DNA of 64,000 nucleotides from a bacterium (GTDB lineage: Bacteria; Patescibacteriota; Minisyncoccia; Minisyncoccales; JAZDGI01), in assembly GCA_043807085.1 (NCBI GenBank), contig JAZDGI010000013.1, forward strand, positions 1,607 to 65,606. The letters run 5' to 3'. The notes beneath the pieces are model-generated. The model searched no databases, had not been told where the DNA came from, and saw only the letters and a list, made by a program, of their open reading frames with translations. Shown one piece after another: positions 1 through 55,041 of this stretch (positions within the stretch are counted from its first letter, which is position 1; each line of letters starts with the position of its first letter). The position numbers and the translations under genes were made by a program.

Positions 1-3000
1 TCGCCGTTGGGCTTTTGGCCGCGCCGGCGTTTTTTATTTCGACCGTTCAGGCGCAGGCGTCAGACATTTCTGAAAAACTTCTGCCTCTGGCGACGGAGCT
101 GGGCTGCGAGACAAAGGTGGCCTGCGCGTCATCATTCACGGCGAATTTCTCAAAAGGGCTTGATTTGGCCGAGAAATACGATATTTACAATACCGAGCAG
201 AAAACGCTGGCGAAATCGTTTAAGCAAGAAGTGCTGGCAAACCTTACAGACGTCAGCGAAGGAGATTTTGAACAAAAAATTATTGAAATTGCGAATAATC
301 TTGTGAAAAATAAGCCCAGTTTGGCCAAACAGCTTGGCGTGAATGCGCAAGGAGTTAAAGCAGCTGAGACAATTGTCGCCGAATTAAAGAGTGTTGGCGC
401 TAATCTGACTGTTTGCAGTCGTCCAGCTGATACCCTCGCACGAGAAGAACTTATTACGTGTTTGAACGCGAGCCGGAAATTGGCGGAACGAGCGGGCGAG
501 GTCAAAACTTATATCACGAAGGAAAGACTGACGACGGCAACCAATGCCTTGAATCTTGAAGAGTCGTTGAGACGCGGCGAATACGGCAATTTAGGCCTGA
601 CGGCCGACGAAGTGGGGATGAAATGTCTTCGGTCCGATTCGCCAGCAGTGTGCGATGAAATCGCAAGTAAATTTTTCGGCGAACAAGGCGTCAAAATGCT
701 TAAAGAAGCGAAGGCTCAAGTGACGCAGACCGAAGAATTTTATCGTCAAAACGTCAAGGATTACACCTTGACAGTCTCTGGCGGAGGAACGTTTATTGGG
801 AAAGAGGCGATCAGTGGAGTTTGTGAAAGCGCATTTAAAGAAAAGAATATTGCGTTGGTGCGCGCCTGTGGCGAATTTGCGGTGAAGAATGGGTTTGCTT
901 CGCAAGTAGATGTGAGCCGCGCACTGGAAATTGTCCAGTCCGTCACCGATAAAAACATAAATTTTGACCTTTGTGTTCAGGATCCCGCCGCCTGTGATAC
1001 TTACGTCTCAAATGAGTTGCGCGGCGAATTTGATGCGATGCGGGAAATAGACAAAATTATGCGTCAGGAGATGGGCTTTGACCCGATGCAGTGTAATCAG
1101 AGCGCCACGAACCCAGAAATCGGAAAAAAATGCTTAGAAGCGTCAAGGCGCGCCTTGCCGCAGATTGAAGCAATCAGCACAAATTCAAAAGAAGCTCAAC
1201 AGCTTGTAGCCAATATCAAAAAACAGATTATTTTTGGAGAAGAAGCGCAGAATCAAAAGAACAAAATCCAGCAAGAATTGACAGTTGGCGGCGGACCGGG
1301 CGGTTGCAAAAACGAAGAGGAATGCAACAAATTCTGCGCGAAACCGGAGAACGGACCAGAATGTCTCGCTTTCGGTACTAAACAGGGTTTTTACAAAGAA
1401 GATGAAATAGCGCAACGTTTTGAAGTGTATAATCAGCAGTTTATTATGCCGACGGATTACATTCAGCCAATGTATCCAACAATGGCGTCAGGAACGCTTC
1501 CTAACGCAATGACCGGGGGAGGAATGGGCCAGAGTCCGGAATGTTTCGCGGCGATTCAGATGGGCGACTTTGCCAAAGCTAAGCAAATTTGTTCTGTGCT
1601 GCAGACATTGTCGATAAATCAAACGTCGATGGAACAATATCAGCAATCCTATCAGCCTGTCTGTCCAATGATTTTTCCGGCGCCGTGCCCAATGGGACAG
1701 TATCGAGAACAACAAATTATGAATGGCTGTTCAGTGTTTGGCGCGTGTGTTTTGTACCAAGGAACGAAGATTCAGTTGCCGACACAGCCGCAGCCGTGCC
1801 CGCAAGTGCCGCCTTGTTCTTCAGGGCAATATCATCCCACGGAATTTAATGGTTGTTTGAAAACGGAATGTCTCGTTTCGCAATGGCAGCAGCCGTCGTT
1901 CCCGATCAACCAAGGCGCCTGCACTGGCAGTCAAATCAGGTGTTATAGTCCCGGTAGTCCGGATGGCTGGTGTCAGATGCCGCCTTGTCCGGTAGTCGTA
2001 CCAGCAACTTCTTGCCCCAGCGGAAACTACTGGGATGGGAGTGCCTGCGTGCCTTCAACGTCTGTGCCGCCAACTGCCTGTACCGGTAGTCAGGTTTGGT
2101 GTCCAAGTCCTTCGGGTGGACCCGGCTGGTGTCAGATGCCGCCCTGTTCGGTAACCACCACTCCTCCAGTAACCACTACTTGTCCCACTGGTCAGTATTG
2201 GTATATGCCGTCAGCCGGTGGAACAGGCTATTGCCGAGATAATGCCAGCGTCAGCGCTTGTACTGGCAGCCAAATAAGATGTTATAATTCCAGCACTCCG
2301 GATGGCTGGAGTCAGATGACGCCCTGTCCGCCGGTTACACCATCAACCACCTGTCCCAGCGGTAATTACTGGGATGGGTCTGCTTGTGTACCCTCAACAC
2401 CCGTGTCACCAACTGCTTGTACCGGCAGCCAAATTAGGTGTTATAATTCCAGCACTCCGGATGGCTGGTGTCAGATGCCGCCGTGTCCGTCTTCAAGCAG
2501 CGGGACAGTATCGTGCTCAGGTTCTTACTCGTCAAATGGAGGACAAGCATGTAATTACTCTATGTGTCCAAATGGATGTATTATAGGGCAAAATGGCTGT
2601 CCTACTGGATGTATGTCTCCTCCGCAAATCAGCGATTGTCCTTCGGGCCAATATTGGTGCGCTCCAACTACTTCGGGGGCAAGCGGATGGTGCCAGTCAT
2701 CGCCGTGTCCGTCTTCAAGCAGCGGGACAGTATCGTGCTCAGGCGCTTACTCCGGTGGAGGGTACGCATGTAATTTTTCAATGTGTCCAAACGGTTGCAC
2801 GTTCGGGTCAGACAATTGCCCGAACGGCTGTATGAGTTCGCCACCGCCAAGCGGTAGCGGTTCCTGTACCGGCAGTCAGGTTTGGTGTCCAGGCTCTTCA
2901 GGAGCAGCCGGCTGGTGTCAGATGCCGCCGTGTCCTGTAGCCGTAACTCCGACAACCTGCCCTAGTGGAAACTATTGGGATGGAAGCGCTTGCGTACCTT

Positions 3001-3161
3001 CAACACCGCCTTCTTGTCCCGATGGCAACTACTGGAATGGAAGCGCTTGCGTCGTCAGCGGCATCTTGTCTGAAAATCAATTAGCTGAAATAGCCTCAGC
3101 TTTCAGCAATCTCCGCAATGAAATATTTGGATTGTTTAATTTGCTTAATTTACCGCGTTAA
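1..3161 (+). CDS. Large secreted cysteine-rich tandem-repeat protein; 5' end lies outside the window (the annotated TTG at 15 sits inside a signal-peptide-like AVGLLAAPAFFISTVQAQA).
   Basis: ORF 15..3161 stays open back to position 3. An N-terminal ~400 aa helical region is followed by at least 6 repeated Cys modules (CTGSQ[IV][RW]C...PDGWCQMPPCP and CPSGNYWDGSACVPST). Confidence 0.7.
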   Translation, partial: AVGLLAAPAFFISTVQAQASDISEKLLPLATELGCETKVACASSFTANFSKGLDLAEKYDIYNTEQKTLAKSFKQEVLANLTDVSEGDFEQKIIEIANNLVKNKPSLAKQLGVNAQGVKAAETIVAELKSVGANLTVCSRPADTLAREELITCLNASRKLAERAGEVKTYITKERLTTATNALNLEESLRRGEYGNLGLTADEVGMKCLRSDSPAVCDEIASKFFGEQGVKMLKEAKAQVTQTEEFYRQNVKDYTLTVSGGGTFIGKEAISGVCESAFKEKNIALVRACGEFAVKNGFASQVDVSRALEIVQSVTDKNINFDLCVQDPAACDTYVSNELRGEFDAMREIDKIMRQEMGFDPMQCNQSATNPEIGKKCLEASRRALPQIEAISTNSKEAQQLVANIKKQIIFGEEAQNQKNKIQQELTVGGGPGGCKNEEECNKFCAKPENGPECLAFGTKQGFYKEDEIAQRFEVYNQQFIMPTDYIQPMYPTMASGTLPNAMTGGGMGQSPECFAAIQMGDFAKAKQICSVLQTLSINQTSMEQYQQSYQPVCPMIFPAPCPMGQYREQQIMNGCSVFGACVLYQGTKIQLPTQPQPCPQVPPCSSGQYHPTEFNGCLKTECLVSQWQQPSFPINQGACTGSQIRCYSPGSPDGWCQMPPCPVVVPATSCPSGNYWDGSACVPSTSVPPTACTGSQVWCPSPSGGPGWCQMPPCSVTTTPPVTTTCPTGQYWYMPSAGGTGYCRDNASVSACTGSQIRCYNSSTPDGWSQMTPCPPVTPSTTCPSGNYWDGSACVPSTPVSPTACTGSQIRCYNSSTPDGWCQMPPCPSSSSGTVSCSGSYSSNGGQACNYSMCPNGCIIGQNGCPTGCMSPPQISDCPSGQYWCAPTTSGASGWCQSSPCPSSSSGTVSCSGAYSGGGYACNFSMCPNGCTFGSDNCPNGCMSSPPPSGSGSCTGSQVWCPGSSGAAGWCQMPPCPVAVTPTTCPSGNYWDGSACVPSTPPSCPDGNYWNGSACVVSGILSENQLAEIASAFSNLRNEIFGLFNLLNLPR
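1915..3050 (+). repeat. DNA-level tandem, imperfect repeats of roughly 120-130 nt that encode the Cys-rich modules.
   Basis: The string ctg(c/t)accggcagtca(a/g)(a/g)t...ggatggctggtgtcagatgccgcc(c/g)tgtcc recurs at about 1921, 2083, 2263, 2413, 2863; the cccagcggaaactactgggatgg unit also recurs. Confidence 0.7.
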
Positions 3162-29098: not shown

Positions 29099-30826
29099 AT
29101 GACCTCTTCAGGGCTAAGAGAAAAGTTTTTGGAATTTTTTGAGAAAAACGGGCATGCTATTATACCTTCAGCTTCTTTAGTTCCGGAGAATGATCCAACC
29201 GTGCTTTTTACCACGGCCGGCATGCACCCATTGGTGCCTTTTTTGTTGGGAGAAAAACATCCGGCCGGCAAAAGGCTGGCTAATTTTCAGGCCTGCGTGC
29301 GCACCGACGATATTGAGGAGGTGGGAGATGAAACGCACCATACTTTTTTTGAGATGCTAGGCAACTGGTCGCTGGGAGATTACTTTAAAGAAAAAGCGAT
29401 AAAATTAAGTTTTGAATTTTTGACGGCAAAAGATTGGCTCGGTTTGGCAAAAGAAAAATTAGCTGTTTCTGTTTTTGCGGGAGACAACGACGCGTCAAAA
29501 GATGAAGAGTCAAAAAAAATCTGGCTTAGTCTGGGCGTTCCCGAGGCGCTGATCAAAGAGCTTTCAAGGAAAGATAATTGGTGGGGGCCAGCTGGCGCAA
29601 CCGGGCCCTGTGGCCCTGACACGGAAATATTCTATTGGGCGGGCCGTGAGTCGGTTCCCGAAGAATTTAATCCGGAAGATAAACACTGGGTGGAAATATG
29701 GAACGATGTTTTTATGGAGTATTTTAAGAATAAAGAAGGGAAATACGAACCGCTTTCTCAAAAAAATGTTGACACCGGTATGGGCATGGAAAGAACGTTG
29801 GCGGCGCTTAACGGCTTTGACGATAATTATAAAACAGATATATTTTGGCCGATTGTTGAGGAGATAGAAAAATTGTCCGGCGGAAAAAAGTATGAAGAGA
29901 ATAAAAAAGAGCTCCGCATAATTGCCGACCATATTAAAGCCGCGGTTTTTTTGATTGCGGATGGAATTTTGCCTTCCAATGCGGAGAGGGGATATGTTTT
30001 GAGGAGGATTTTAAGAAGAGCGATCAGATACGGAAAATTACTCGGCTTTGCCGAGCAATTCCTGATTCCGCTGGCGCAGAAAGTTGTTGAAATTTATCAA
30101 GACGTTTATCCGGAAGTTAAGGCAAAAGAAAATGATATTCTGAATGTTATTCTGGTTGAGGAAGAAAAATTTGAAAAAACATTAGAGGATGGGCTAAAAC
30201 AATTTGAAAGAGGGCTGGACGCTTTTGAGCTATATACAACTTATGGTTTTCCCATAGAGCTGACAATAGAGCTAGCTAAAGAAAGAGGCAAAAGCGTTGA
30301 CACGGAAGAGTTTAATAAAAAATTTAAAGAGCACCAGGAGCTTTCCAGGACAGCTTCCGCCGGAATGTTTAAGGGGGGATTGGCCGACACCGGGGAAACG
30401 GCCACCAGATATCATACTGCTACGCACCTGCTATTGGCTTCTTTGCGGCAAATTTTAGACCCGGAGACTTATCAAAAAGGCAGCAATATAACAGCCGAAC
30501 GTTTAAGATTTGATTTCAATTATTCCCAAAAATTGACCGAAGCGCAGATTAAGCAAGTCGAAGATTTAGTTAACCAGAAGATTCAAGAAGACATAAAGGT
30601 TGAAATGATTGAAATGCCCAAAGACGAGGCAATTAAAATCGCTAAAATTTCTTTTGATCCTGCCAAATACGGCGAGATCGTCAAAGTTTATAAAATCGGC
30701 GATTTCAGCATTGAACTTTGCGGCGGGCCGCATATTGACAGAACGGGAAAGCTGGGGAAATTTAAGATTGTTAAGGAAGAGGCGTCAAGCGACGGTGTTA
30801 GAAGAATTCGGGCAATTTTGGAATAA
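29099..30826 (+). CDS. alaS: Alanyl-tRNA synthetase, short form (575 aa) with catalytic and editing domains and no C-Ala domain.
   Basis: FTTAGM; GNWSLGDYFK; HTATHLL editing-domain zinc motif; ends right after CGGPH. Confidence 0.85.
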   Translation: MTSSGLREKFLEFFEKNGHAIIPSASLVPENDPTVLFTTAGMHPLVPFLLGEKHPAGKRLANFQACVRTDDIEEVGDETHHTFFEMLGNWSLGDYFKEKAIKLSFEFLTAKDWLGLAKEKLAVSVFAGDNDASKDEESKKIWLSLGVPEALIKELSRKDNWWGPAGATGPCGPDTEIFYWAGRESVPEEFNPEDKHWVEIWNDVFMEYFKNKEGKYEPLSQKNVDTGMGMERTLAALNGFDDNYKTDIFWPIVEEIEKLSGGKKYEENKKELRIIADHIKAAVFLIADGILPSNAERGYVLRRILRRAIRYGKLLGFAEQFLIPLAQKVVEIYQDVYPEVKAKENDILNVILVEEEKFEKTLEDGLKQFERGLDAFELYTTYGFPIELTIELAKERGKSVDTEEFNKKFKEHQELSRTASAGMFKGGLADTGETATRYHTATHLLLASLRQILDPETYQKGSNITAERLRFDFNYSQKLTEAQIKQVEDLVNQKIQEDIKVEMIEMPKDEAIKIAKISFDPAKYGEIVKVYKIGDFSIELCGGPHIDRTGKLGKFKIVKEEASSDGVRRIRAILE

Positions 30827-30857
30827 GCCCCTTATTTGTTATAATAAAAAGACCATT

Positions 30858-32096
30858 ATGCCAAAAAAGATAATTGATATTATGCCTCCGGGAATAGAAA
30901 GCTCCGGCCGTAAAAAAAAATCGGCCGAGGTTTTGCCAGAAAGCGGAGCAAAGCCGTCTTTTAAGATATTTTTTAGCAAAAAATTCTATTTAATAATCGC
31001 TTTTTTGGCGTTGGCGGGAGCCGCGGCTTTTTTTAGCCAAAGCCGGGCTGAAATAAGAATTTTTCCGGCAACGGAAGATTTGACCTTTGAAACAAAATTA
31101 AGCGTAGCCAGCAACGGCTTGGCAGAGTTGGCCGGCGTTATTTTTGAAGAAGAAAAGACGGTGACGAAAGAATTCTTAGCTACCGGGAAAAAAGTCATAG
31201 AAAAGAAAGCTGAAGGCACGATCAGGATTTATAACAATTATCATTCAAGTCAGGCATTAGTGGCGAACACTCGGCTGCAGGCTACTTTGGAAAAATTTCA
31301 GCCAGCTTTGGAAAAAGACGAGAAGCCGTGGTTCAGAATTGTATCAGCGGTCACGATTCCGGCCAAGAGTTATGTTGACGTCAAGGTTGTCGCTGACAGT
31401 TCCGGCGAAAAATACAATATCAAGTCTTCAAAGTTTTCCGTTCCTGGATTAGCGGGAACCCCTCAATATACCCTGATTTACGGCGAATCGTTTCAGGATT
31501 TCCAAGGAGGGAGTCGAAAAGAAAGCCCTCAAATTTCAGCCGCTGACCTGGCAAAAGCAAAAGATGAAATTTCTCAAATAGCCAAAGAGGCAAGCGTATC
31601 CCAGCTTAAAGAAAAGATTCCGGCCGATTTTACCTATTTTGAGGACGCTTTTAAGACAGAAGCTTTAGAAACATTTTCTATTTCTAAGGCGCTTGACGAA
31701 TCGGAAAAATTCAATTATCAGGCCAAAGCCAAAGCAAAAACCATGGCTGTTAAAAAAACCGACTCGGATAATTTTGCCAAAGAATTTGTTCTTTCTGAAA
31801 TCGGAGACAAAAAAATTGACGAAAAAAATCTAAAAATCAATTATTCTTTATATTCAATTGATAACCAGTTGAACAAAATGATGCTGGCGCTTGACATAGA
31901 TTCAATAGTTTACTCCCTGGGCGGCGATGAGGATTTGTTGAAAAAAAATCTTTCCGGGAAATCTCTGGCCGACGCTAAATATTTCCTGGAAAATCAGTCA
32001 GGGAGCATAAAAGAGGCAAAAATTAAAGTCTGGCCGTTTTGGGCGAACTCTCTTCCAAAAGACTTGACCAAAATAAAGATTTTTGTTAATATCTAA
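30858..32096 (+). CDS. Hypothetical membrane-anchored protein (412 aa). Start chosen at MPKKIID, after the alaS stop.
   Basis: N-terminal transmembrane segment; the ORF-track extension overlaps alaS in another frame. Confidence 0.5.
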
Positions 32097-45407: not shown

Positions 45408-46175
45408 GTTAGACATCGGATGTCTAACATACTACAATAAAGCATATGATAAGAAAAATTCAATTTACTCCAGGCTCGTATTATCACATCTATAACAGAA
45501 GTAATGACGAACGGTCGATATTCCTTGATGAAAAAGACTATGCCCGATTTCTGTTTTTAATTCTTTTTTACCAAGCGTCAGTTCCCCTTTATAATCTTGG
45601 CCTCCAGACCTCTTATTTTGTTAAACATTCAATGTTTAATATATCTGCAAAAACTCTTCAAAATATAATAATGGCAAGAAGAGTAGAGCTTAATTCTTTT
45701 GCAATAATGCCCAATCATTTTCACCTCTTTTTGCAAGAAAAAGATAAAAAAGGAATTTCTTTCTATCTTCAACGAATCCAAAATGGATACGCGAAATATT
45801 TTAATGCAAAACACGCGAAAAGGGGACATCTCTTCCAGGGCGCTTTCCGCGCCGTCCCCGTAGAAACAGACGAGCAACTTCTCTATCTCTCGGCGTACAT
45901 TCATCGTAATCCAAGAGAAATAGCGGAATGGAAAGATAAAGAAGCAAAATACCCGTGGTCTAGTTATCAAGATTTCATCGGAAAGAATCGTTGGAATGAA
46001 CTTTTAAGACCAAACATTATTCTTGATCACTTTTCTGGCGCCAAGGATTATTACGAATTTGTAGAAACAAGTACTGCGAAAATAAAACCCAGCGAGCTTA
46101 AAACATTCGCTAAAGACTTTTTTCTTGAGGATGTTAGACATCGGATGTCTAACATATCATCGGATGTCTAACATA
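45408..46175 (+). mobile_element. REP-associated tyrosine transposase unit: RAYT gene flanked by perfect REP palindromes (gttagacatcggatgtctaac).
   Basis: The identical 21-bp palindrome occurs at 45408-45428 and 46133-46153, with an extra partial copy at 46158-46174. The unit lies between gatC and gatA. Confidence 0.75.
45446..46171 (+). CDS. REP-associated tyrosine transposase (IS200/IS605-like Y1 HUH transposase).
   Basis: HUH motif NHFHLFL; catalytic Tyr in SAYIHRNP; 241 aa. The 3' end reads through the REP copies. Confidence 0.8.
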   Translation: MIRKIQFTPGSYYHIYNRSNDERSIFLDEKDYARFLFLILFYQASVPLYNLGLQTSYFVKHSMFNISAKTLQNIIMARRVELNSFAIMPNHFHLFLQEKDKKGISFYLQRIQNGYAKYFNAKHAKRGHLFQGAFRAVPVETDEQLLYLSAYIHRNPREIAEWKDKEAKYPWSSYQDFIGKNRWNELLRPNIILDHFSGAKDYYEFVETSTAKIKPSELKTFAKDFFLEDVRHRMSNISSDV

Positions 46176-48131: not shown

Positions 48132-48202
48132 CGCGGGATAGAGTAGCAGTAGCTCGCGGGTCTCATAAGCCCGAGGCCCCCGTGCAAATCGGGGTCCCGC
48201 AA
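48132..48202 (+). tRNA. Initiator tRNA-fMet (CAT).
   Basis: Near-colinear with E. coli tRNAfMet; C1-A72 mismatch (CGCGGGA/TCCCGCA); GGG/CCC run in the anticodon stem; loop CTCATAA. Confidence 0.75.
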
Positions 48203-48210
48203 CATTTATT

Positions 48211-48282
48211 GCCGGCGTAGCTCAGTGGTAGAGCAATGCTTTCATAAGGCAGTGGTCGTCAGTCCGAATCTGACCGCCGGCA
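48211..48282 (+). tRNA. tRNA-Met (CAT), elongator; a lysidine tRNA-Ile cannot be excluded.
   Basis: Acceptor GCCGGCG/CGCCGGC; D-arm TAGCTCAGTGGTAGAGC; anticodon loop TTCATAA. Confidence 0.7.
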
Positions 48283-48301
48283 TTTGTCGAATTATTTATT
48301 T

Positions 48302-48376
48302 GGGCCCATAGTGTAGCCTGATTAACACGTCTCCCTGTCACGGAGAAGATCAGGGGTTTAAATCCCCTTGGGCCCG
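48302..48376 (+). tRNA. tRNA-Asp (GTC).
   Basis: Acceptor GGGCCCA/TGGGCCC; anticodon loop CTGTCAC; T-arm AGGGGTTTAAATCCCCT; followed by a T8 run. Confidence 0.75.
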
Positions 48377-48475
48377 CTTTTTTTTATTGACAACACTCTC
48401 TATTGTGTTAAAAGAGAATCAAGCGGGAGGGAGTACCTTCCCAATTAAATTTGACAAGAAAGGAGGTGATAGGTA

Positions 48476-48679: not shown

Positions 48680-48895
48680 ATGGCGATAACGATTAGGGAT
48701 CTTCCTCTCGGACAAGGCGACATTACTCTTTCTTTCCGTAACAGAAAAAAAGAGAGAGTGAGAGGCTTGGTGGTTTTGCGTGGACGGAGAAAATATTTCA
48801 TTGCTCGAAATTCGCCCAAAGAGTCTTTCGGCCCTGGCACTTGCGTGGAAGATATTTGGTCTTTGAAAGGAAGTGCAAGACAGAAAAAAGCGTGA
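48680..48895 (+). CDS. Small hypothetical basic protein (71 aa).
   Basis: SD-like gaaaggaaag; 19 nt after the previous ORF; no recognisable motif. Confidence 0.35.
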   Translation: MAITIRDLPLGQGDITLSFRNRKKERVRGLVVLRGRRKYFIARNSPKESFGPGTCVEDIWSLKGSARQKKA

Positions 48896-48926
48896 GTCAG
48901 TAATAGAAAGAAGGAGTAAAAGGAAA

Positions 48927-49910
48927 ATGGAAGCAAGTAGTTTCGTTAACAGGTACTTTAAACGGGTGGCAAGCACTGAGTCAGTCCTCTGCGTTGGTTT
49001 GGACCCCACTCCCGAGCACGTGCCGCTCGATATGCGGAACGGGAATATTATTGGCGATATTGAGAGATATCTCCGCAAGGTTATTAGCATCGCCGCTCCG
49101 TTGGTGCCTGTCGTCAAGACTCAAGTCGCTTACTACTCTGCTCTCGGTCCAGAAGGCGAGGTAATGCTTAAAAGATTGATAGCCTACGCCCACGCCCTGG
49201 GGTTGCTTGTTATTCTTGATGCCAAGCGCGCGGACATCGGCGAGACCATGGAGCAGTACGGCAATGAGGTGTTCGGCGAATACGGGGTAGACGCTTGTAC
49301 CTTTGTTCCGTATCTCGGGCCTACTTTCAACCCGTCGTGGATGAAGTGGCTGGCACAAGGCCGGATGGTTATTTCCATGATTAGGATCAGTAATCCGGAG
49401 GCCGCGATACTCCAGGACCTTGAGCTGAAAGAAAGCGGACTCAAAGTTTACGAGTACTTGGCGGAGCTTGTGGCCGCTTGGAATGCTAAAGTCGTTAAGG
49501 AAACCAGTGGCTTAGGTGGTGTTGGCGGTGTCGTCGGGGCGACTTGGCCAGAGCAGGCGCCAAGATGTCGTGAGCTCGCCGGCGACGAAGTGTTCTTTCT
49601 AACTCCTGGCTACGGCGCCCAGGGTGGCGGAGCCGATGGGGCCGTCGCTGGGCTGCCAACCATCCCTAAGAAGGTAGATACCCTGGAGGTGGTGGGTGGT
49701 AGAAAGCTAATGGGCACCGTGAACAGTTCACGGGGCATCACGCTAACAAGCTGGTGGGACCCGAAAGCGAAACAGCCGCGAGAGGGGAAAGCGCTTGACT
49801 TAGTCGAGGCTGCGATTAAGGCTGCGAATACCGACCTTAACGCCGCGCTCGCACGCAAGCTCGGTATCCCTATATTGGTATCTCCTTATAGTGTAGTGTC
49901 TTTCGCATAG
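48927..49910 (+). CDS. pyrF: Orotidine 5'-phosphate decarboxylase, type 2 (actinobacterial/archaeal-like). Start chosen at MEASSF, after SD aaggag.
   Basis: LCVGLDPTPEH, VKTQVAYY, ILDAKRADIGETM, RISNPEA, GVVGATWPEQAP and LTPGYGAQGG match type-2 PyrF blocks. Confidence 0.8.
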   Translation: MEASSFVNRYFKRVASTESVLCVGLDPTPEHVPLDMRNGNIIGDIERYLRKVISIAAPLVPVVKTQVAYYSALGPEGEVMLKRLIAYAHALGLLVILDAKRADIGETMEQYGNEVFGEYGVDACTFVPYLGPTFNPSWMKWLAQGRMVISMIRISNPEAAILQDLELKESGLKVYEYLAELVAAWNAKVVKETSGLGGVGGVVGATWPEQAPRCRELAGDEVFFLTPGYGAQGGGADGAVAGLPTIPKKVDTLEVVGGRKLMGTVNSSRGITLTSWWDPKAKQPREGKALDLVEAAIKAANTDLNAALARKLGIPILVSPYSVVSFA

Positions 49911-49981
49911 GTAATCACTGAATAGGCGGCGGGGCGCGACGCGCGACCCGCCGCCACCAAAAACTCAAAAGGAGGTAAAAG

Positions 49982-50746
49982 ATGGGTGTTTTGATTGAGA
50001 TTTCCGATGACCACTTGGAGACACTTCGCAGATGCGGAGGATACTATGAATGTCCTAAGGATAGTAAGGGGCGTAGGATGGGACCCTTAGTCGGTTACGC
50101 CGGGAAATATCCGGGCCCTGATGGAATGGAGAAGCAATGGGTAGGGGATGTTTATGCGAATTTCGCAAAGGCAGACGAACACCCAAACGTGCTTTACAAC
50201 TACGCAACTTGCATGAACGTGAGGTTGTTAGGGTCAGTAATCGACAACATCGATGTATTCTGCGGTACGCCGATAGGTGGTTACAATTTCTCGGTAATTC
50301 TCGGGTGGACCTATAATCGCCGCGTCGTTAAAGCGGAGAAAAAAGTGACCGCTCTTGCCACTGAAAAAACGCGTGAGCAAACCGAGCTAGTCTTCGCCCG
50401 GCATGACATTGAAAGGGGGGTACGTTATGCGATCGTGGAGGATGTATGTAATAATTTCTCCACAACCGAGACGTTGATCGCCTTAATTATGTCGCTCGGG
50501 GGAAGCGTTACCGCTATCGTATGCGAACTGAACAGGTCACTCGACTTCGAGGATTACTACTATCCATCGAAAGTCGCCGGGGGACGTCTAATTCCGGTCG
50601 CCAGTCTGGTACGGAAGCCGATTCCGGAATACAGACAAGACGACCCCGCCGTGATAGACGATATCAGAATCGGTAATGTCGTCTGGAAGCCCAAAATCGA
50701 ATGGCCTCGCTTAATGAAAGCGATGGCAGATTCTCGCAACTATTGA
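49982..50746 (+). CDS. pyrE: Type I phosphoribosyltransferase, putative orotate phosphoribosyltransferase (PyrE-like).
   Basis: PRTase PRPP-binding motif YAIVEDVCNNFSTTETLIAL; FCGTPIGGYNF loop; strong SD aaaaggaggt; sits between pyrF and pyrD. Confidence 0.5.
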   Translation: MGVLIEISDDHLETLRRCGGYYECPKDSKGRRMGPLVGYAGKYPGPDGMEKQWVGDVYANFAKADEHPNVLYNYATCMNVRLLGSVIDNIDVFCGTPIGGYNFSVILGWTYNRRVVKAEKKVTALATEKTREQTELVFARHDIERGVRYAIVEDVCNNFSTTETLIALIMSLGGSVTAIVCELNRSLDFEDYYYPSKVAGGRLIPVASLVRKPIPEYRQDDPAVIDDIRIGNVVWKPKIEWPRLMKAMADSRNY

Positions 50747-50897
50747 GGTTCGGCCTCGATAGACGGCCCAAAGGGATTAAACGAATTTAATCCCCGCGGG
50801 CTTTTCTTTTTATTTAAATATGCTAGTTTCGGGGAAAGGGGAGGGATGGCACCTGGATAGCTCCTTCTCAATTTTAAAAGAAAGGACAAGGTTAGAA

Positions 50898-51821
50898 ATG
50901 ATCAAATTGAGCAATGGACACGAGTTGGAATTCCTGGCCGCGTCTGGTTCTTTGGCTTTTGACGGACGAGGCTGGCCGTGGGAATGGCCGCTTCGGTGGT
51001 TGGGGCTGCTGGATCCTTATCTTTTTACCATCGTGACCAAGACCATAATGCCGGAGCCCTGGAGGGGTAACCTTCGGTGGACTCATCCCTGGGATGTGGT
51101 GAAGTTTATATCCGAAGAGGGGAAGGAAATCCATCCGATTAAAGCGTTAACGAATCCTGCCTCAATTGGCGGAGTAATAAACGCAATTGGCTTGACCGGG
51201 CCGGGCGTTGAAACGTGGATAGAAAATGATTATCCTAAAATTGAGCGATCTGGACTTAAGGTGATTGTTTCAATCACCAGAGAGAGGGGGCAGAGCTGTC
51301 GTGGTATGGTTAAGAGGCTAAGCGGTCTTAAAAACGTTGTGGGGATTGAGTATAATTCCTCTTGCCCGAATGTTGGCCCCATTCTTTTAGATAGCCCAGA
51401 GATAGTGATCAGAAATTGTTGCGAAATAAAGGGGGAGTCTGACTATCCTGTTTTGTTAAAGCTTGGTTACGCACAGCCGTACCTTGAGATTGCCATGGCA
51501 TTACAGGGTACAGTTGAGGCAATCAGCATCAATACCGTTCCTTGGAAAACAATTTTTGGCGGAAAAATTTCTCCCTTGGCGAAGTACGGCGGAGGAGGAG
51601 TTTCGGGACCTGTTGCCAAGCCGATTATCTGGAAAATGATTTCCGAGCTAGCTCGGGAGATATCCATTCCGGTTATCGGCGCTGGTATTTGGGAGTACGA
51701 AGACATTTCGCGGCTGAAGAGTTTTGGCGCTTCCGCTTTCCAAACGGGCACTTTGTTTTTGCCTTACCCTTGTCGGCCGACAAGGTATGTTAAGAGATGG
51801 CGGCAAGAGAGGGGGGGGTGA
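50898..51821 (+). CDS. pyrD: Dihydroorotate dehydrogenase, class 1(A)-like. Start chosen at MIKLSNG.
   Basis: IEYNSSCPNV (ELNLSCPN motif with catalytic Cys); GGGGVSGPVAKP; IPVIGAGIWEYED...TGTLF. Confidence 0.8.
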   Translation: MIKLSNGHELEFLAASGSLAFDGRGWPWEWPLRWLGLLDPYLFTIVTKTIMPEPWRGNLRWTHPWDVVKFISEEGKEIHPIKALTNPASIGGVINAIGLTGPGVETWIENDYPKIERSGLKVIVSITRERGQSCRGMVKRLSGLKNVVGIEYNSSCPNVGPILLDSPEIVIRNCCEIKGESDYPVLLKLGYAQPYLEIAMALQGTVEAISINTVPWKTIFGGKISPLAKYGGGGVSGPVAKPIIWKMISELAREISIPVIGAGIWEYEDISRLKSFGASAFQTGTLFLPYPCRPTRYVKRWRQERGG

Positions 51822-51865
51822 TGACCGTTGAATCTTTTTGGTTCAGCGGCTTTTTGTTTGCCTTC

Positions 51866-51889
51866 GCTCGCTTTTGGCGAGCTTTTTTG
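51866..51889 (+). terminator. Rho-independent terminator (GCTCGC-ttttg-GCGAGC-TTTTTT) at the island's right edge.
   Basis: Seen directly in the sequence. Confidence 0.7.
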
Positions 51890-51964
51890 TTGAATGAGAT
51901 GGGCCTAAGTTATCCCCAGCTTGGGGTTGATTTTGGTTAAAAATTAAGCTATAATTAAAGAGTT

Positions 51965-53110
51965 ATGCGGAAAAACATTGCCATAAAAGACGAAAAGGAA
52001 AACGTTTTGATTGAGGATCTGAACAAAAGAAACGATATCAAAGCGGAAAGAATAAAGAGGTTGTTAAGGCTTCCGGACCTGACAAAAAAAGAAAATTCTC
52101 CGGTTAAAATTTTGACTGACGAGATTATCAAATTGCCAAGATTTGCCGATTTTGATTTGGTTGATATTCCAAGAATAGTTACAGTAGAAAAATGTTTTGA
52201 CTTACTTAATGCGCCGAAGGATCATCCTAGCAGGAGGGAAACAGATACTTATTATCTTACAGATAAAGATATTTTAAGAACAGAAATGACCGTAATGTGG
52301 CCCTATTATTTGAGAGATAAAGAGGTTTTAGAAAGATTGGAAAAAGAAGGATATGTCGCTGCTTTGTCTCCGGGAATAGTTTTTAGAAAAGATGAAATTG
52401 ACAGAAAGCATTTTCCGGCTTTCCATCAAATAGATTTTTTGTATATTTGCCGAAAAGACCAAAGAATCATTACTTTAAAAGAATTGCAAGACGTTCAGGC
52501 CGATGGAGTTAAAATTATTTTTGGAGAAGATATAGGGTTTAGGTTTTTGGTTGATACCTTTCCTTTCACGGATCCATCCACTCAAATAGAAATTAAAGTT
52601 GGAGAGAATTGGATAGAGGTTGCAGGATCTGGTCTTGTGCATACGCAGTGTCTTAAAAATTTTGGATTAGATCCGGAAGTTTACAACGGCTGGGCCGGTA
52701 CTTTTGGAATTGATAGACTCGCTATGATAAAAATGGGGATTCCTGACATTAGAATACTTTGGTCGGATGACCCAAGGATTACCAGCCAGTTCAAAGACAT
52801 AAATAGCAAGTATAAAGAAGTAAGCAAATACCCGGAAATTTCAAGAGACATTTCTTTTGTCATTGATAAAAATATAAATTTGAATAATTATTACGAAATT
52901 GTCAGAGATTTTGCCGAGAATTTGATAGAAGAAGTGAGGCTTATAGACAGCTACGAAGATGAAAAAAAGTTTGGCAAAGACAAAAAGAGCTACACTTTCA
53001 GGATTGTTTATCGGTCTCCGGAAAGAACATTAAAGAATGATGAAGTAAATAAAATTCAGGAAGAAATAAGAAACAAAACAAAGCAAGATTTAAATGCCGT
53101 CTTACGTTAA
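51965..53110 (+). CDS. pheS: Phenylalanyl-tRNA synthetase, apparently a single-chain form: PheS catalytic core fused to a C-terminal FDX-ACB anticodon-binding domain.
   Basis: DHPSRRETDTYY motif 1 region; FRKDEIDRKHFPAFHQIDFL; C-terminus YPEISRDISFVID...RTLKNDEVN resembles the PheT/mitochondrial PheRS FDX-ACB domain. Confidence 0.7.
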   Translation: MRKNIAIKDEKENVLIEDLNKRNDIKAERIKRLLRLPDLTKKENSPVKILTDEIIKLPRFADFDLVDIPRIVTVEKCFDLLNAPKDHPSRRETDTYYLTDKDILRTEMTVMWPYYLRDKEVLERLEKEGYVAALSPGIVFRKDEIDRKHFPAFHQIDFLYICRKDQRIITLKELQDVQADGVKIIFGEDIGFRFLVDTFPFTDPSTQIEIKVGENWIEVAGSGLVHTQCLKNFGLDPEVYNGWAGTFGIDRLAMIKMGIPDIRILWSDDPRITSQFKDINSKYKEVSKYPEISRDISFVIDKNINLNNYYEIVRDFAENLIEEVRLIDSYEDEKKFGKDKKSYTFRIVYRSPERTLKNDEVNKIQEEIRNKTKQDLNAVLR

Positions 53111-55041
53111 TGACCAAACCTAAAATAATCAAAGAAGGGGATTCTTATACTGCCAAAGATATTTATGTCTTGGAGGGATTGGAACCTGTTAGAAAACGGC
53201 CGGGAATGTATATTGGAACGACAGGTCTTGAGGGACTGCATCATTTGATTTGGGAGGTAGTGGACAATTCGCTGGACGAAGCAATGGCCGGATACTGCAA
53301 AAATATAGAAGTCGTTCTTTTGTCAAACGGCCAGGTTAGGGTTGCAGACGACGGCCGGGGAATTCCGACCGAAATTCATCCTCAAACCAAAAAATCAGCC
53401 CTAGAGACCGTAATGACTACCCTGCATGCCGGCGCTAAATTCGGCGGTAAATCTTATCAGATCTCGGGCGGTTTGCACGGAGTGGGCGTTTCGGTTGTGT
53501 GCGCTTTGTCCGCTTGGATGAGGGTTGAGGTTTGCCGTAACGGAGTAAAATTTTCTCAAGAGTATGGCCGGGGGAAAGTGAAGACAAAAGTCAAAAAAGA
53601 AGGTAGCTGCCGGCAAACCGGAACTATGGTTATTTTTGAACCAGACTCCCAGATATTTCCTGAAACAAAGTTTGATTTTAAAAAAGTTATCAATCACCTT
53701 CGCCAGCAGGCCTATTTAACCAAGGGAGTGAAAATTAAAATTGTGGATGAGAGAGAAAAGCCGTCAGATTCTTACGTTTTTTATTTTGAGGGAGGACTGG
53801 GTTCTTATGTTAAATATTTGACTAGGGGAGTTACTCTAAGGCATCCCACTATTTTTTATTGCCAGGGAGAGAAAGATGGAGTGCTGGTTGAATCAGCCAT
53901 TCAATATACTGAAGAGTTTGAGTGTTACGAAGAAAGTTTTGCCAACAATATCCATACGGGAGAAGGCGGCACTCATTTAACCGGCTTCCGGTCAGCTTTG
54001 ACGAGGACTTTTAACGATTACGCCAGGAAAAATGGAATATTGAAAGAAAAAGGCGACGAAAACTTGGGTGGAGAAGATATTAGGGAAGGTTTAACAGGCG
54101 TGGTATCGGTGAAAATAAGGGATCCTCAATTTGAGGGCCAGACAAAAGCTAAATTAGGAAATCCCGAGGCAAAATCCGCCGTAGAATCGGTGACAGCTGA
54201 AAATTTAACCGACTTCCTGGAAAGAAATCCTCAAGATGCAAGGGCGATTATTGAAAAGTGCATTCTTTCGCAGAAGGCCCGCAAGGCTGCCAAGACCGCC
54301 AGAGAAACCGTCTTAAGAAAGGGGATTCTGGAAGGTTTGGCATTGCCGGGCAAGCTAGCTGATTGCGCCTCAAGAGATCCTGAAGAATCCGAGCTCTTCA
54401 TAGTGGAAGGCGATTCGGCTGGCGGCAGCTGTAAGATGGGTCGCGATCGGCGGTTTCAGGCTATTCTTCCGTTGCGCGGAAAGATTCTCAATGTGGAAAG
54501 GGCGAGAATTGACAAGGTTCTGGCTTTCAAAGAGATTAAATCTTTAATTATTGCCCTGGGAACGGCCGTGGCAGAAGATTTTGACCCGGAAAAAGTAAGG
54601 TATAAAAGGATAATTTTAACCTTGGATGCGGATGTTGACGGCTCCCATATCAGGACACTGCTTTTAACTCTGTTTTATCGGTATTTTAAGCCCTTGATTG
54701 ACCGGGGTTATCTCTACATTGCCCAGCCGCCGCTTTATAAGATTCAAAGCGGCAAAGAAATAAAATATGTTTATTCGGAAGAACAAAAATTGGCTTTGCT
54801 AAAAACAATGGGAAAGGCGACTGGCATTTCAGTCCAAAGATATAAAGGATTGGGAGAGATGAATCCCGAAGAATTATGGGAAACAACGATGAATCCACAG
54901 AATCGGATTCTGCTTCAGGTTCATATTGACGTCGTCAAGGACGCTGATCGGATTTTTGACACCCTGATGGGAGACGAAGTGTCTCCCCGAAAAAAGTTCA
55001 TTGAGAGCCATGCCAAAAAAGTGAAGAATCTTGACATATAA
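53110..55041 (+). CDS. gyrB: DNA gyrase subunit B.
   Basis: 643 aa; GHKL ATPase and TOPRIM blocks (EGDSAGG, PLRGKILN). Confidence 0.95.
   Translation: MTKPKIIKEGDSYTAKDIYVLEGLEPVRKRPGMYIGTTGLEGLHHLIWEVVDNSLDEAMAGYCKNIEVVLLSNGQVRVADDGRGIPTEIHPQTKKSALETVMTTLHAGAKFGGKSYQISGGLHGVGVSVVCALSAWMRVEVCRNGVKFSQEYGRGKVKTKVKKEGSCRQTGTMVIFEPDSQIFPETKFDFKKVINHLRQQAYLTKGVKIKIVDEREKPSDSYVFYFEGGLGSYVKYLTRGVTLRHPTIFYCQGEKDGVLVESAIQYTEEFECYEESFANNIHTGEGGTHLTGFRSALTRTFNDYARKNGILKEKGDENLGGEDIREGLTGVVSVKIRDPQFEGQTKAKLGNPEAKSAVESVTAENLTDFLERNPQDARAIIEKCILSQKARKAAKTARETVLRKGILEGLALPGKLADCASRDPEESELFIVEGDSAGGSCKMGRDRRFQAILPLRGKILNVERARIDKVLAFKEIKSLIIALGTAVAEDFDPEKVRYKRIILTLDADVDGSHIRTLLLTLFYRYFKPLIDRGYLYIAQPPLYKIQSGKEIKYVYSEEQKLALLKTMGKATGISVQRYKGLGEMNPEELWETTMNPQNRILLQVHIDVVKDADRIFDTLMGDEVSPRKKFIESHAKKVKNLDI

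Follow-up and report, generated by a model that had tools for sequence, protein, structure and literature searches.

A single-chain phenylalanyl-tRNA synthetase-like protein with a C-terminal FDX-ACB domain as the probable housekeeping enzyme of a patescibacterial cell

Bacterial phenylalanyl-tRNA synthetase (PheRS) is usually described as an (alpha-beta)2 enzyme with an editing site in the beta subunit, whereas single-chain PheRS is regarded as a peculiarity of organelles. The 64-kb stretch of patescibacterial DNA analyzed here (further called the window), from a member of the candidate phyla radiation (CPR) with its very small genomes, raises the question whether a bacterium can rely on a PheRS made of one polypeptide. 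Our preferred answer, to which we assign a probability of roughly three in four, is that the PheRS-like gene of this locus encodes the housekeeping PheRS of the cell as a single polypeptide without editing domain. This reading is based on the domain map, the fold, the pocket residues, the gene context, a conservation similar to that of core genes and the spread across Parcubacteria/Paceibacteria. We infer that the protein is active in aminoacylation, is monomeric and replaces the canonical pheS-pheT pair rather than accompanying it. In the literature searched, we found no account of a single-chain PheRS that serves a bacterium as housekeeping enzyme; the single-chain form is discussed there for mitochondria only.

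The first-pass annotation, made from the letters of the window, had described one 381-aa protein with a PheS class II core, a short N-terminus without long coiled coil and a C-terminal FDX-ACB (ferredoxin-fold anticodon-binding) domain as in PheT, and had asked for a profile-based domain map. Such a map recovers all these elements (Table 1). The strings quoted in that annotation (DHPSRRETDTYY, FRKDEIDRKHFPAFHQIDF, RDISFVID and YRSPERTLKNDEVN) are all present in the open reading frame, and the protein is identical to an NCBI entry (P0001, 'MAG: hypothetical protein V1705_01730 [bacterium]') located on a 114,876-bp contig. Pfam tRNA-synt_2d matches aa 39-276 with an E-value of 1e-50 (173 bits versus a cut-off of 19.8), and the FDX-ACB profile is matched end to end (positions 1-94 of 94, E 1.3e-26, 93.3 bits versus a cut-off of 31.1). 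Both E-values are far beyond chance. The C-terminus matches in addition the last 107 positions (692-798 of 798) of TIGR00472 pheT_bact, and the C-termini of beta subunits in the PDB match the same region. The core is preceded by about 43 residues, and there is no Pfam match in the protein to the coiled-coil family Phe_tRNA-synt_N (PF02912), while positions 38-323 of the TIGR00468 profile align to aa 9-277. The N-terminal segment is modeled by AlphaFold2 as two helices (residues 10-21 and 25-35) and has invariant columns at D24, K26, E28-K31, L34, L36 and D38-K41 in the alignment of relatives. Canonical PheRS, represented by E. coli and T. thermophilus, consists of two subunits, of which PheS has the same motifs 2 and 3 and the same Phe pocket and PheT has a B8 domain homologous to the C-terminus of our protein. 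Here, PheS core and B8 are joined in one chain, the coiled coil of PheS is cut down to about 43 aa, and the B1-B7 domains of PheT are lacking and with them, therefore, the editing site.

Table 1. Features of the PheRS-like gene and its immediate surroundings (positions refer to the window; Tt, T. thermophilus; Ec, E. coli).
Feature	Position	Strand	Remarks
Single-chain PheRS-like gene	51965..53110	+	ORF list: ATG start, 381 aa plus stop
Short N-terminal helical segment, aa 1-43	51965..52093	+	Remnant of the PheS coiled-coil end
Class II PheS-type catalytic core, aa 39-276	52079..52792	+	Pfam tRNA-synt_2d
Clade-specific insertion of ~20 residues, aa ~108-130 (...TVMWPYYLRDKEVLERLEKEG)	52286..52354	+	Alignments
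Motif 2, aa 139-157, VFRKDEIDRKHFPAFHQID	52379..52435	+	ATP/amino-group ligands R141, H149, F153, Q155, D157
FPFTDPS, aa 199-205	52559..52579	+	Phenyl-ring sandwich/specificity residues (Tt F258, F260, V261 / Ec T251)
Motif 3, aa 242-254, GWAGTFGIDRLAM	52688..52726	+	Holds A244 (Tt A314 / Ec A294) and R251
Inter-domain hinge/linker, aa 260-287, DIRILWSDDPRITSQF...KYKEVSKYP	52742..52825	+	Colinear with the mtPheRS junction
FDX-ACB domain (PheT B8-type), aa 287-381	52823..53107	+	Pfam PF03147
Promoter-like site TTGATT-17-TATAAT	51927..51955	+	10/12 match; 10 nt ahead of the ATG
Two terminator-like hairpins	51825-51849, 51866-51882		Just upstream, behind the preceding gene
gyrB	53110..55041	+	Stop of the PheRS-like gene and ATG of gyrB have one base in common (TAATG)

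The combination of this core with FDX-ACB is the architecture of the mitochondrial single-chain enzyme, as had been proposed, and human mitochondrial PheRS (mtPheRS) is indeed the best structure match both in sequence and in fold. The best PDB sequence matches are human mtPheRS entries (3CMQ, 8P8X and others, E ~2e-47), with residues 184-372 aligning to residues 217-405 of the human chain in one unbroken alignment across the core/FDX-ACB junction. Bacterial alpha subunits in the PDB match the core only (E ~1e-33) and beta subunits the C-terminus only. The AlphaFold2 model is of medium confidence (mean pLDDT 73.8), the hinge (residues 260-287) being disordered in it with pLDDT below 50. In Foldseek, human mtPheRS again provides the best matches (E 2e-26, ~390 columns), with a TM-score of only ~0.47 because the inter-domain orientation differs; 3CMQ, 3TUP and 5MGU match the fold over the full length. 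Bacterial alpha subunits come next, with a TM-score of ~0.75 that is normalized to target length and concerns the core.

Similar to our protein, the mitochondrial enzymes (human FARS2, yeast MSF1; 3CMQ, 3TUP) carry an alpha-type class II core and a C-terminal FDX-ACB domain in one chain, have a colinear junction (…DIR.LWS.D.R….QF…KYP…DISF) and lack the B3/B4 editing domain. Yet the identity is only ~29-31%, the eukaryotic insertion at query position ~165-180 is absent from the bacterial protein, and the latter has an insertion of its own at aa ~108-130 in which the residue equivalent to T. thermophilus Q183 is replaced by Trp. Moreover, the mitochondrial enzyme is an organelle-targeted product of a nuclear gene, whereas the gene studied here is a bacterial chromosomal one in a housekeeping setting. 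The earlier term 'mitochondrial-type' thus applies to the architecture but not to the family, since the score against TIGR00469 pheS_mito (218.6 bits) is below the cut-off of 258.35 and the clade of the protein lies outside the organellar group. P0121, the nearest representative outside the Patescibacteria family proper, scores 264.3 bits, just above the same cut-off. We regard the PheRS-like protein as a genuine and new bacterial form of a single-chain architecture that is known already.

How widespread is this variant? More than 3,957 homologues were obtained at E≤1e-10 in a first search and more than 6,320 at E≤1e-30 in a second one seeded with a 48%-identical representative, totals that may also take in canonical PheS and organellar forms. 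The two-domain architecture is present in all 240 matches listed (345-448 aa, mostly 376-402 aa). Every named homologue among the matches listed comes from a Parcubacteria/Paceibacteria genome, the names being Nealsonbacteria, Staskawiczbacteria, Berkelbacteria, Liptonbacteria, Yanofskybacteria, Paceibacterota, Minisyncoccia and Parcubacteria group; these members are labeled 'hypothetical protein' by NCBI and 'PheRS alpha chain' by JGI. Strict peptide patterns, scanned against the GTDB species genomes, matched 136 of them. The best 80 of these 136 show 66-89% identity, with at least 94% of the query covered in 79 of them, and they are nearly all Patescibacteria, bar a few loose MAG labels; one is a complete chromosome of 876 kb. 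Complete or nearly complete carriers of the gene include OY969557.1 (876,331 bp), JBAZUH010000001.1 (738 kb), CAVXIE010000002.1 (594 kb) and JAKAEA010000001.1 (549 kb). Among 1.84 billion searched, 196 representatives reached E≤1e-30, and the fused architecture occurs in most of the top 150.

A bootstrapped neighbor-joining (NJ) tree was built from the catalytic core and rooted on canonical PheS; in it, the Patescibacteria family and the representatives P0121, P0122, P0125 and P0128 form a clade with 94% support. The phylogeny with organellar and bacterial forms that the first-pass annotation had suggested thus gives the protein a clade of its own and not an organellar position. A separate clade (100% support) is formed by SrmL, the 'PheS-related mystery ligase' (NF051887) of bacteria, with which the query clade pairs weakly (59%). 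The eukaryotic organellar enzymes, marked by the insertion at query position ~165-180, fall into a third, large group, which also holds short forms of 340-370 aa. Three loci of such short forms were examined, and each is a huge-phage gene, on a 160-kb contig (P0142), a 340-kb contig (P0136/P0278) and the 635-kb LR745206.1. These phage proteins of 345-360 aa have the same fused core and FDX-ACB domain, yet they lack the insertion at aa 108-130, are encoded among phage genes and group with the organellar enzymes; P0136, the only phage-context form scored, passes the pheS_mito cut-off with 308.5 bits. The core/FDX-ACB junction is colinear in all groups, which, as judged from the alignment, argues for a single ancestral fusion.

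Whether the protein is likely to handle phenylalanine was assessed from a pocket alignment in which the query and its 120 close relatives were set against SrmL, organellar and canonical sequences and those borne by phages, using as references E. coli and T. thermophilus PheS that are 100% identical to 3PCO_A and 1B70_A, respectively. Class II motifs 2 and 3 are present along with the Phe-specific pocket (T. thermophilus R204, Q218, F258, F260, V261/T, A314 and R321). Invariant in 120/120 relatives are the equivalents of T. thermophilus R204, H212, F216, Q218, F258, F260, G282, A314 and R321, and the V261 equivalent is Thr in all of them, as in E. coli. The query residues F199, F201 and T202 are invariant too, as are G242, A244, F247, G248 and R251 of motif 3. 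Two ligand positions deviate from canonical PheRS. The equivalent of E220 is Asp (D157) in 120/120 relatives, a replacement common to SrmL, most of the short phage-type forms including the huge-phage ones, and 2 of the 18 eukaryotic sequences. In addition, the insertion at aa ~108-130, which is seen in the query clade only and modeled by AlphaFold2 as two helices (109-117 and 119-128), replaces the canonical TSxxQ; S180 is substituted by Thr (T109) and Q183 by Trp (W112), the latter being invariant in 120/120 family members. Taken at the level of residues, the amino-acid pocket indicates phenylalanine as the probable substrate, with some remodeling near the amino-group and adenylate ligands.

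The profile scores raise a different possibility, as the top NCBIfam match is not a PheRS but SrmL, with 246.3 bits, and all PheRS equivalogs remain below their cut-offs (172.7 versus 237.45 bits for TIGR00468 pheS, 89.6 versus 402.65 bits for TIGR00472 pheT_bact). The gene could thus be a non-housekeeping paralogue, an SrmL-like ligase kept beside a canonical pheS-pheT pair and having another substrate or a role outside translation. The weak pairing with SrmL in the tree and the substitutions of Q183 by Trp and E220 by Asp would suit such a paralogue. That other CPR lineages possess a PheRS beta subunit (PMC5370408) counts against the single-chain reading. SrmL shares the two-domain architecture, the colinear junction and the Asp at the E220 position, and curators evidently know bacterial fused proteins of the SrmL type. 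However, the score is also below the SrmL cut-off of 300, whereas the true SrmL proteins P0193 and P0170 reach 402 and 415 bits. The protein therefore belongs to no curated family, given that it stays below the SrmL, pheS_mito and pheS cut-offs alike, and the two clades are well separated. The pocket differs as well: in SrmL, FPF is changed to HPY (F258H, F260Y), G282 to Glu and HPSR to xISR with loss of the His, whereas F199-P-F201, G221 and H87 are retained in our protein as well as in 120/120 relatives; FPFT, G282 and A314 are all kept in the query and replaced in SrmL. The one SrmL locus examined adjoins a DRT-type reverse transcriptase, not translation genes.

The genomic neighborhood weighs further against a paralogue. 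In the window, the gene is preceded, in this order, by genes for a class II aminoacyl-tRNA synthetase (tRNA-synt_2b) and an mreB-like protein, an IS200-like transposase, gatA, orf174, two tRNA-Met, tRNA-Asp and a pyr-like block, and it is followed by gyrB, nusG, rplK, dCMP deaminase, thyA and gatB. The pyr-like block has a higher GC content. On a JGI contig of 414 kb, the surroundings of a homologue with 78% identity repeat the order of the window, but without the pyr block and with secE, nusG and rplK after gyrB. The conserved block can be written as class II synthetase, mreB, gatC, gatA, tRNA-Met (twice), tRNA-Asp, PheRS-like gene, gyrB, secE, nusG, rplK and, further on, gatB. The succession of the PheRS-like gene and gyrB recurs in the loci L001 and L002, and the tRNA-Met/Met/Asp cluster is kept just upstream in many; no tRNA-Phe(GAA) gene was found in the window or in 60 related loci. 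In other relatives the gene is situated between tyrS and valS or before the gene of the CCA-adding enzyme, so that its neighbors are throughout housekeeping genes of translation or replication. The exception is one query-clade member in an Oligoflexia MAG, which sits among unrelated metabolic, non-housekeeping genes, a context in line with a paralogue; it may represent an extra copy there. A reading as a defense-system gene was rejected, as PADLOC gave no match.

Conservation points in the same direction. Across the 29 genomes with all four genes, the PheRS-like protein has a median identity of 73.5% to that of the window, compared with 69.4% for GyrB, 78.5% for NusG and 64.5% for L11, and with 58.2% for GatB, which was found in 10 of the 29. 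A constraint at the level of GyrB, NusG and L11 would fit an essential enzyme. Since the gene shows housekeeping synteny and is conserved like a core gene in genomes of only ~0.5-0.9 Mb, we regard a non-housekeeping paralogue as unlikely and retain the housekeeping single-chain PheRS.

A single chain would also have to do without a beta subunit. The search for pheS and pheT covered the window and 82 related loci (±10 kb around homologues), thus 83 sources and 1.26 Mb; the PheT query was a real protein of 797 aa encoded in the pheST locus of a Firmicute (L086). The statement of the first-pass annotation that no pheT follows the gene and that gyrB is next agrees with the ORF list and with tblastn, which in the 64-kb window found no pheT-like sequence besides the FDX-ACB part of the gene itself. 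No pheT adjoins the gene in the window or the 82 related loci, and the 1.26 Mb contain neither a second PheS-like, PheT-like or FDX-ACB-bearing gene nor any B3_4, B5 or beta-core sequence. Those canonical PheS representatives that are most similar to our protein come from a sporulating Firmicute and a non-CPR bacterium. A pheT elsewhere combined with a C-terminus free of any FDX-ACB profile match had been named as the result that would contradict the proposal; the FDX-ACB match is strong.

It is conceivable that the protein still acts as an alpha subunit and forms a hetero-oligomer with a beta-like protein of reduced make-up, either a PheT without B8 or a stand-alone B2/YtpR-like protein, the anticodon-binding domain having moved onto alpha. 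PheRS beta subunits of CPR bacteria are documented to lack domains, B2 being absent from many of them (PMC5370408), and in 6 of the 82 related loci a gene for a PheT-B2-like tRNA_bind protein of 139-145 aa lies immediately upstream of the PheRS-like gene. This B2-like gene is, however, absent from the window and from most related loci, and a search with it gave stand-alone tRNA_bind proteins only. The lack of B3_4, B5 and beta-core sequence in all 83 sources, the truncation of the N-terminal coiled coil that (alpha-beta)2 enzymes use and an architecture that in full is that of the self-sufficient mitochondrial monomer make a reduced partner improbable, and the single-chain enzyme without partner is preferred.

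The base composition of the gene seems to tell of a foreign origin at first sight, with a GC content of 0.347 versus 0.426 for the window. Together with the occurrence of single-chain PheRS genes on huge-phage contigs and with the higher-GC pyr-like block and the IS200-like transposase upstream, it could suggest a recent acquisition, with a huge phage or the organelle lineage of a eukaryote as donor. But the low GC is a trait of the family, the gene being below its flanks in 50 of 53 loci (median -0.04), and a recent transfer deduced from it was rejected because the offset is family-wide. The clade is moreover deep (sub-clades are ~48% identical), restricted to Patescibacteria and syntenic, and it is not nested in the phage/organellar group of the NJ tree. 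A recent transfer is consequently very improbable, and a long-established housekeeping PheRS is the reading we follow below.

In this housekeeping single-chain enzyme, the alpha-type class II core would bind ATP and phenylalanine and form Phe-AMP, while the FDX-ACB domain, mounted on the flexible hinge, would bind the GAA anticodon of tRNA-Phe. Anticodon binding would place the acceptor end in the active site of the same chain, as in human mtPheRS. For the human enzyme, the work on 3CMQ and 3TUP reportedly established that the hinged FDX-ACB domain holds the anticodon and brings the acceptor end to the chain of which it is itself a part. Because the B3/B4 editing module is absent, Tyr-tRNA-Phe would not be proofread in cis.

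A broader proposal is more tentative, and we consider it slightly less than an even bet: the Parcubacteria/Paceibacteria class as a whole would decode Phe by a single-chain PheRS without editing domain or beta subunit, and the fused architecture would not be a novelty of eukaryotes or mitochondria but an old invention of prokaryotes, ancestral to the SrmL forms and to those of organelles and huge phages. If true, this breaks the rule that bacterial PheRS is always (alpha-beta)2 and bears on the origin of the mitochondrial PheRS architecture. It also predicts that these ultra-small cells either tolerate Tyr-for-Phe mistranslation or possess an unknown trans-editing route. As pheS and pheT serve as markers for phylogeny and genome completeness, these genomes would consistently be scored as 'missing' both. 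The situation is hidden by KO-based pipelines, which name the PheRS-like gene 'alpha chain' and an unrelated 140-aa tRNA-binding protein 'beta chain'. A compact bacterial PheRS of 381 aa would further be of use in engineering and would constitute a divergent target, or a non-target, for PheRS inhibitors.

Concerning expression, the promoter-like site ahead of the ATG is weak evidence for a promoter of the PheRS-like gene, as such sites are no more numerous in the region than in shuffles. The gene and gyrB overlap by 1 nt and are therefore probably co-transcribed or translationally coupled.

In six of the 82 related loci (L015, L067, L068, L069, L070 and L072), a stand-alone tRNA_bind gene (PF01588; 139-145 aa) is the sole gene separating tyrS from the single-chain PheRS gene, which is followed in turn by valS. 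The encoded protein is of the PheT-B2-like/YtpR/EMAP type and shares ~42% identity with amino acids 24-155 of a Firmicute PheT. It has more than 300 relatives; among the 120 matches listed, PF01588 is the sole domain in every case (108-191 aa), and those that are named belong to Parcubacteria or Moranbacteria. This protein could serve as a trans-acting tRNA-binding helper, and no such stand-alone gene is present within the 64-kb window. JGI labels these proteins as 'phenylalanyl-tRNA synthetase beta chain', and KO-based surveys would therefore mis-score such genomes as pheT-positive.

Compact single-chain PheRS proteins of 348-354 aa are also encoded on three huge-phage-like contigs, which carry PcfJ, PhageMetallopep and thyX and otherwise mainly small ORFs of unknown kind. 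These short forms cluster with organellar enzymes, and P0136, the cluster representative of the gene on the 340-kb contig, scores above the cut-off of the curated mitochondrial profile pheS_mito. A true SrmL ('PheS-related mystery ligase') is followed in its locus by two ~740-aa proteins that fall into no known family, a reverse transcriptase of the DRT type (PADLOC matches RT, RT_UG26 and Drt9) and a PLD-like protein, a neighborhood that suggests a defence-island context for SrmL. In the case of P0122, a member of the query clade from an Oligoflexia MAG, the surrounding genes encode a peptidase, GCS2, an enolase-superfamily protein and a beta-lactamase rather than housekeeping functions. P0122 is possibly an additional PheRS copy, carried by a bacterium whose genome is of normal size.

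Coordinates of the features described (window positions, positions within the ±10-kb loci around homologue matches, L-numbers, or positions on LR745206.1)
Feature	Location	Strand	Remarks
1048-aa ORF	window 15-3161	+	GC of stretch 0.48, on the higher side
AlaRS gene	window 29099-30826	+	575 aa; tRNA-synt_2c + tRNA_SAD
495-aa ORF	window 30609-32096	+	TTG start; follows and overlaps AlaRS gene
IS200-like (Y1_Tnp) transposase gene	window 45446-46171	+	between mreB-like gene and gatA
tRNA-Met/Met/Asp cluster	window 48132-48377		conserved
Three-gene block	window 48873-51821		inserted between tRNA cluster and PheRS gene
Single-chain PheRS gene	window 51965-53110	+	
'tRNA-Phe'	L007:5738-5816	+	ARAGORN; 79 nt; unusual anticodon AAA
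Stand-alone tRNA_bind gene	L015:9465-9884	+	PF01588
Stand-alone tRNA_bind gene	L070:9543-9980	+	PF01588
Compact PheRS	L083:10001-11065		160-kb contig; core + FDX-ACB
Compact PheRS	L090:10001-11047		340-kb contig; core + FDX-ACB
Compact PheRS	LR745206.1:613875-614906		core + FDX-ACB
P0122	L085:10001-11245		414 aa; GCA_019694465.1
SrmL	L088:605-1741		402 bits; neighbours to 9741

The PheRS gene is AT-richer than its surroundings (GC 0.347 versus 0.426 in the window), and its counterparts fall below their flanks in 50 of 53 related loci (median -0.04); this probably reflects protein composition rather than transfer. The three-gene block upstream, in contrast, reaches a GC of 0.51 and comprises an OMP-decarboxylase-like gene, a 254-aa ORF without a Pfam match and a dihydroorotate-dehydrogenase-like gene. 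L022, L024, L026 and L064 likewise carry the last of these ahead of their PheRS gene; the first two were found in none of the related loci. Relatives of the IS200-like transposase occur in L022, L024, L028 and L041. The 'tRNA-Phe' of L007 is possibly a false call, or else a tRNA of an odd kind.

Elsewhere in the window, the 1048-aa ORF matches no Pfam family at E<=1e-5, and the 495-aa ORF has no Pfam match. The AlaRS preceding the latter is so short, with its tRNA_SAD domain ending at amino acid 570, that it is without the C-terminal C-Ala region, and may represent a further aaRS domain reduction in this genome.
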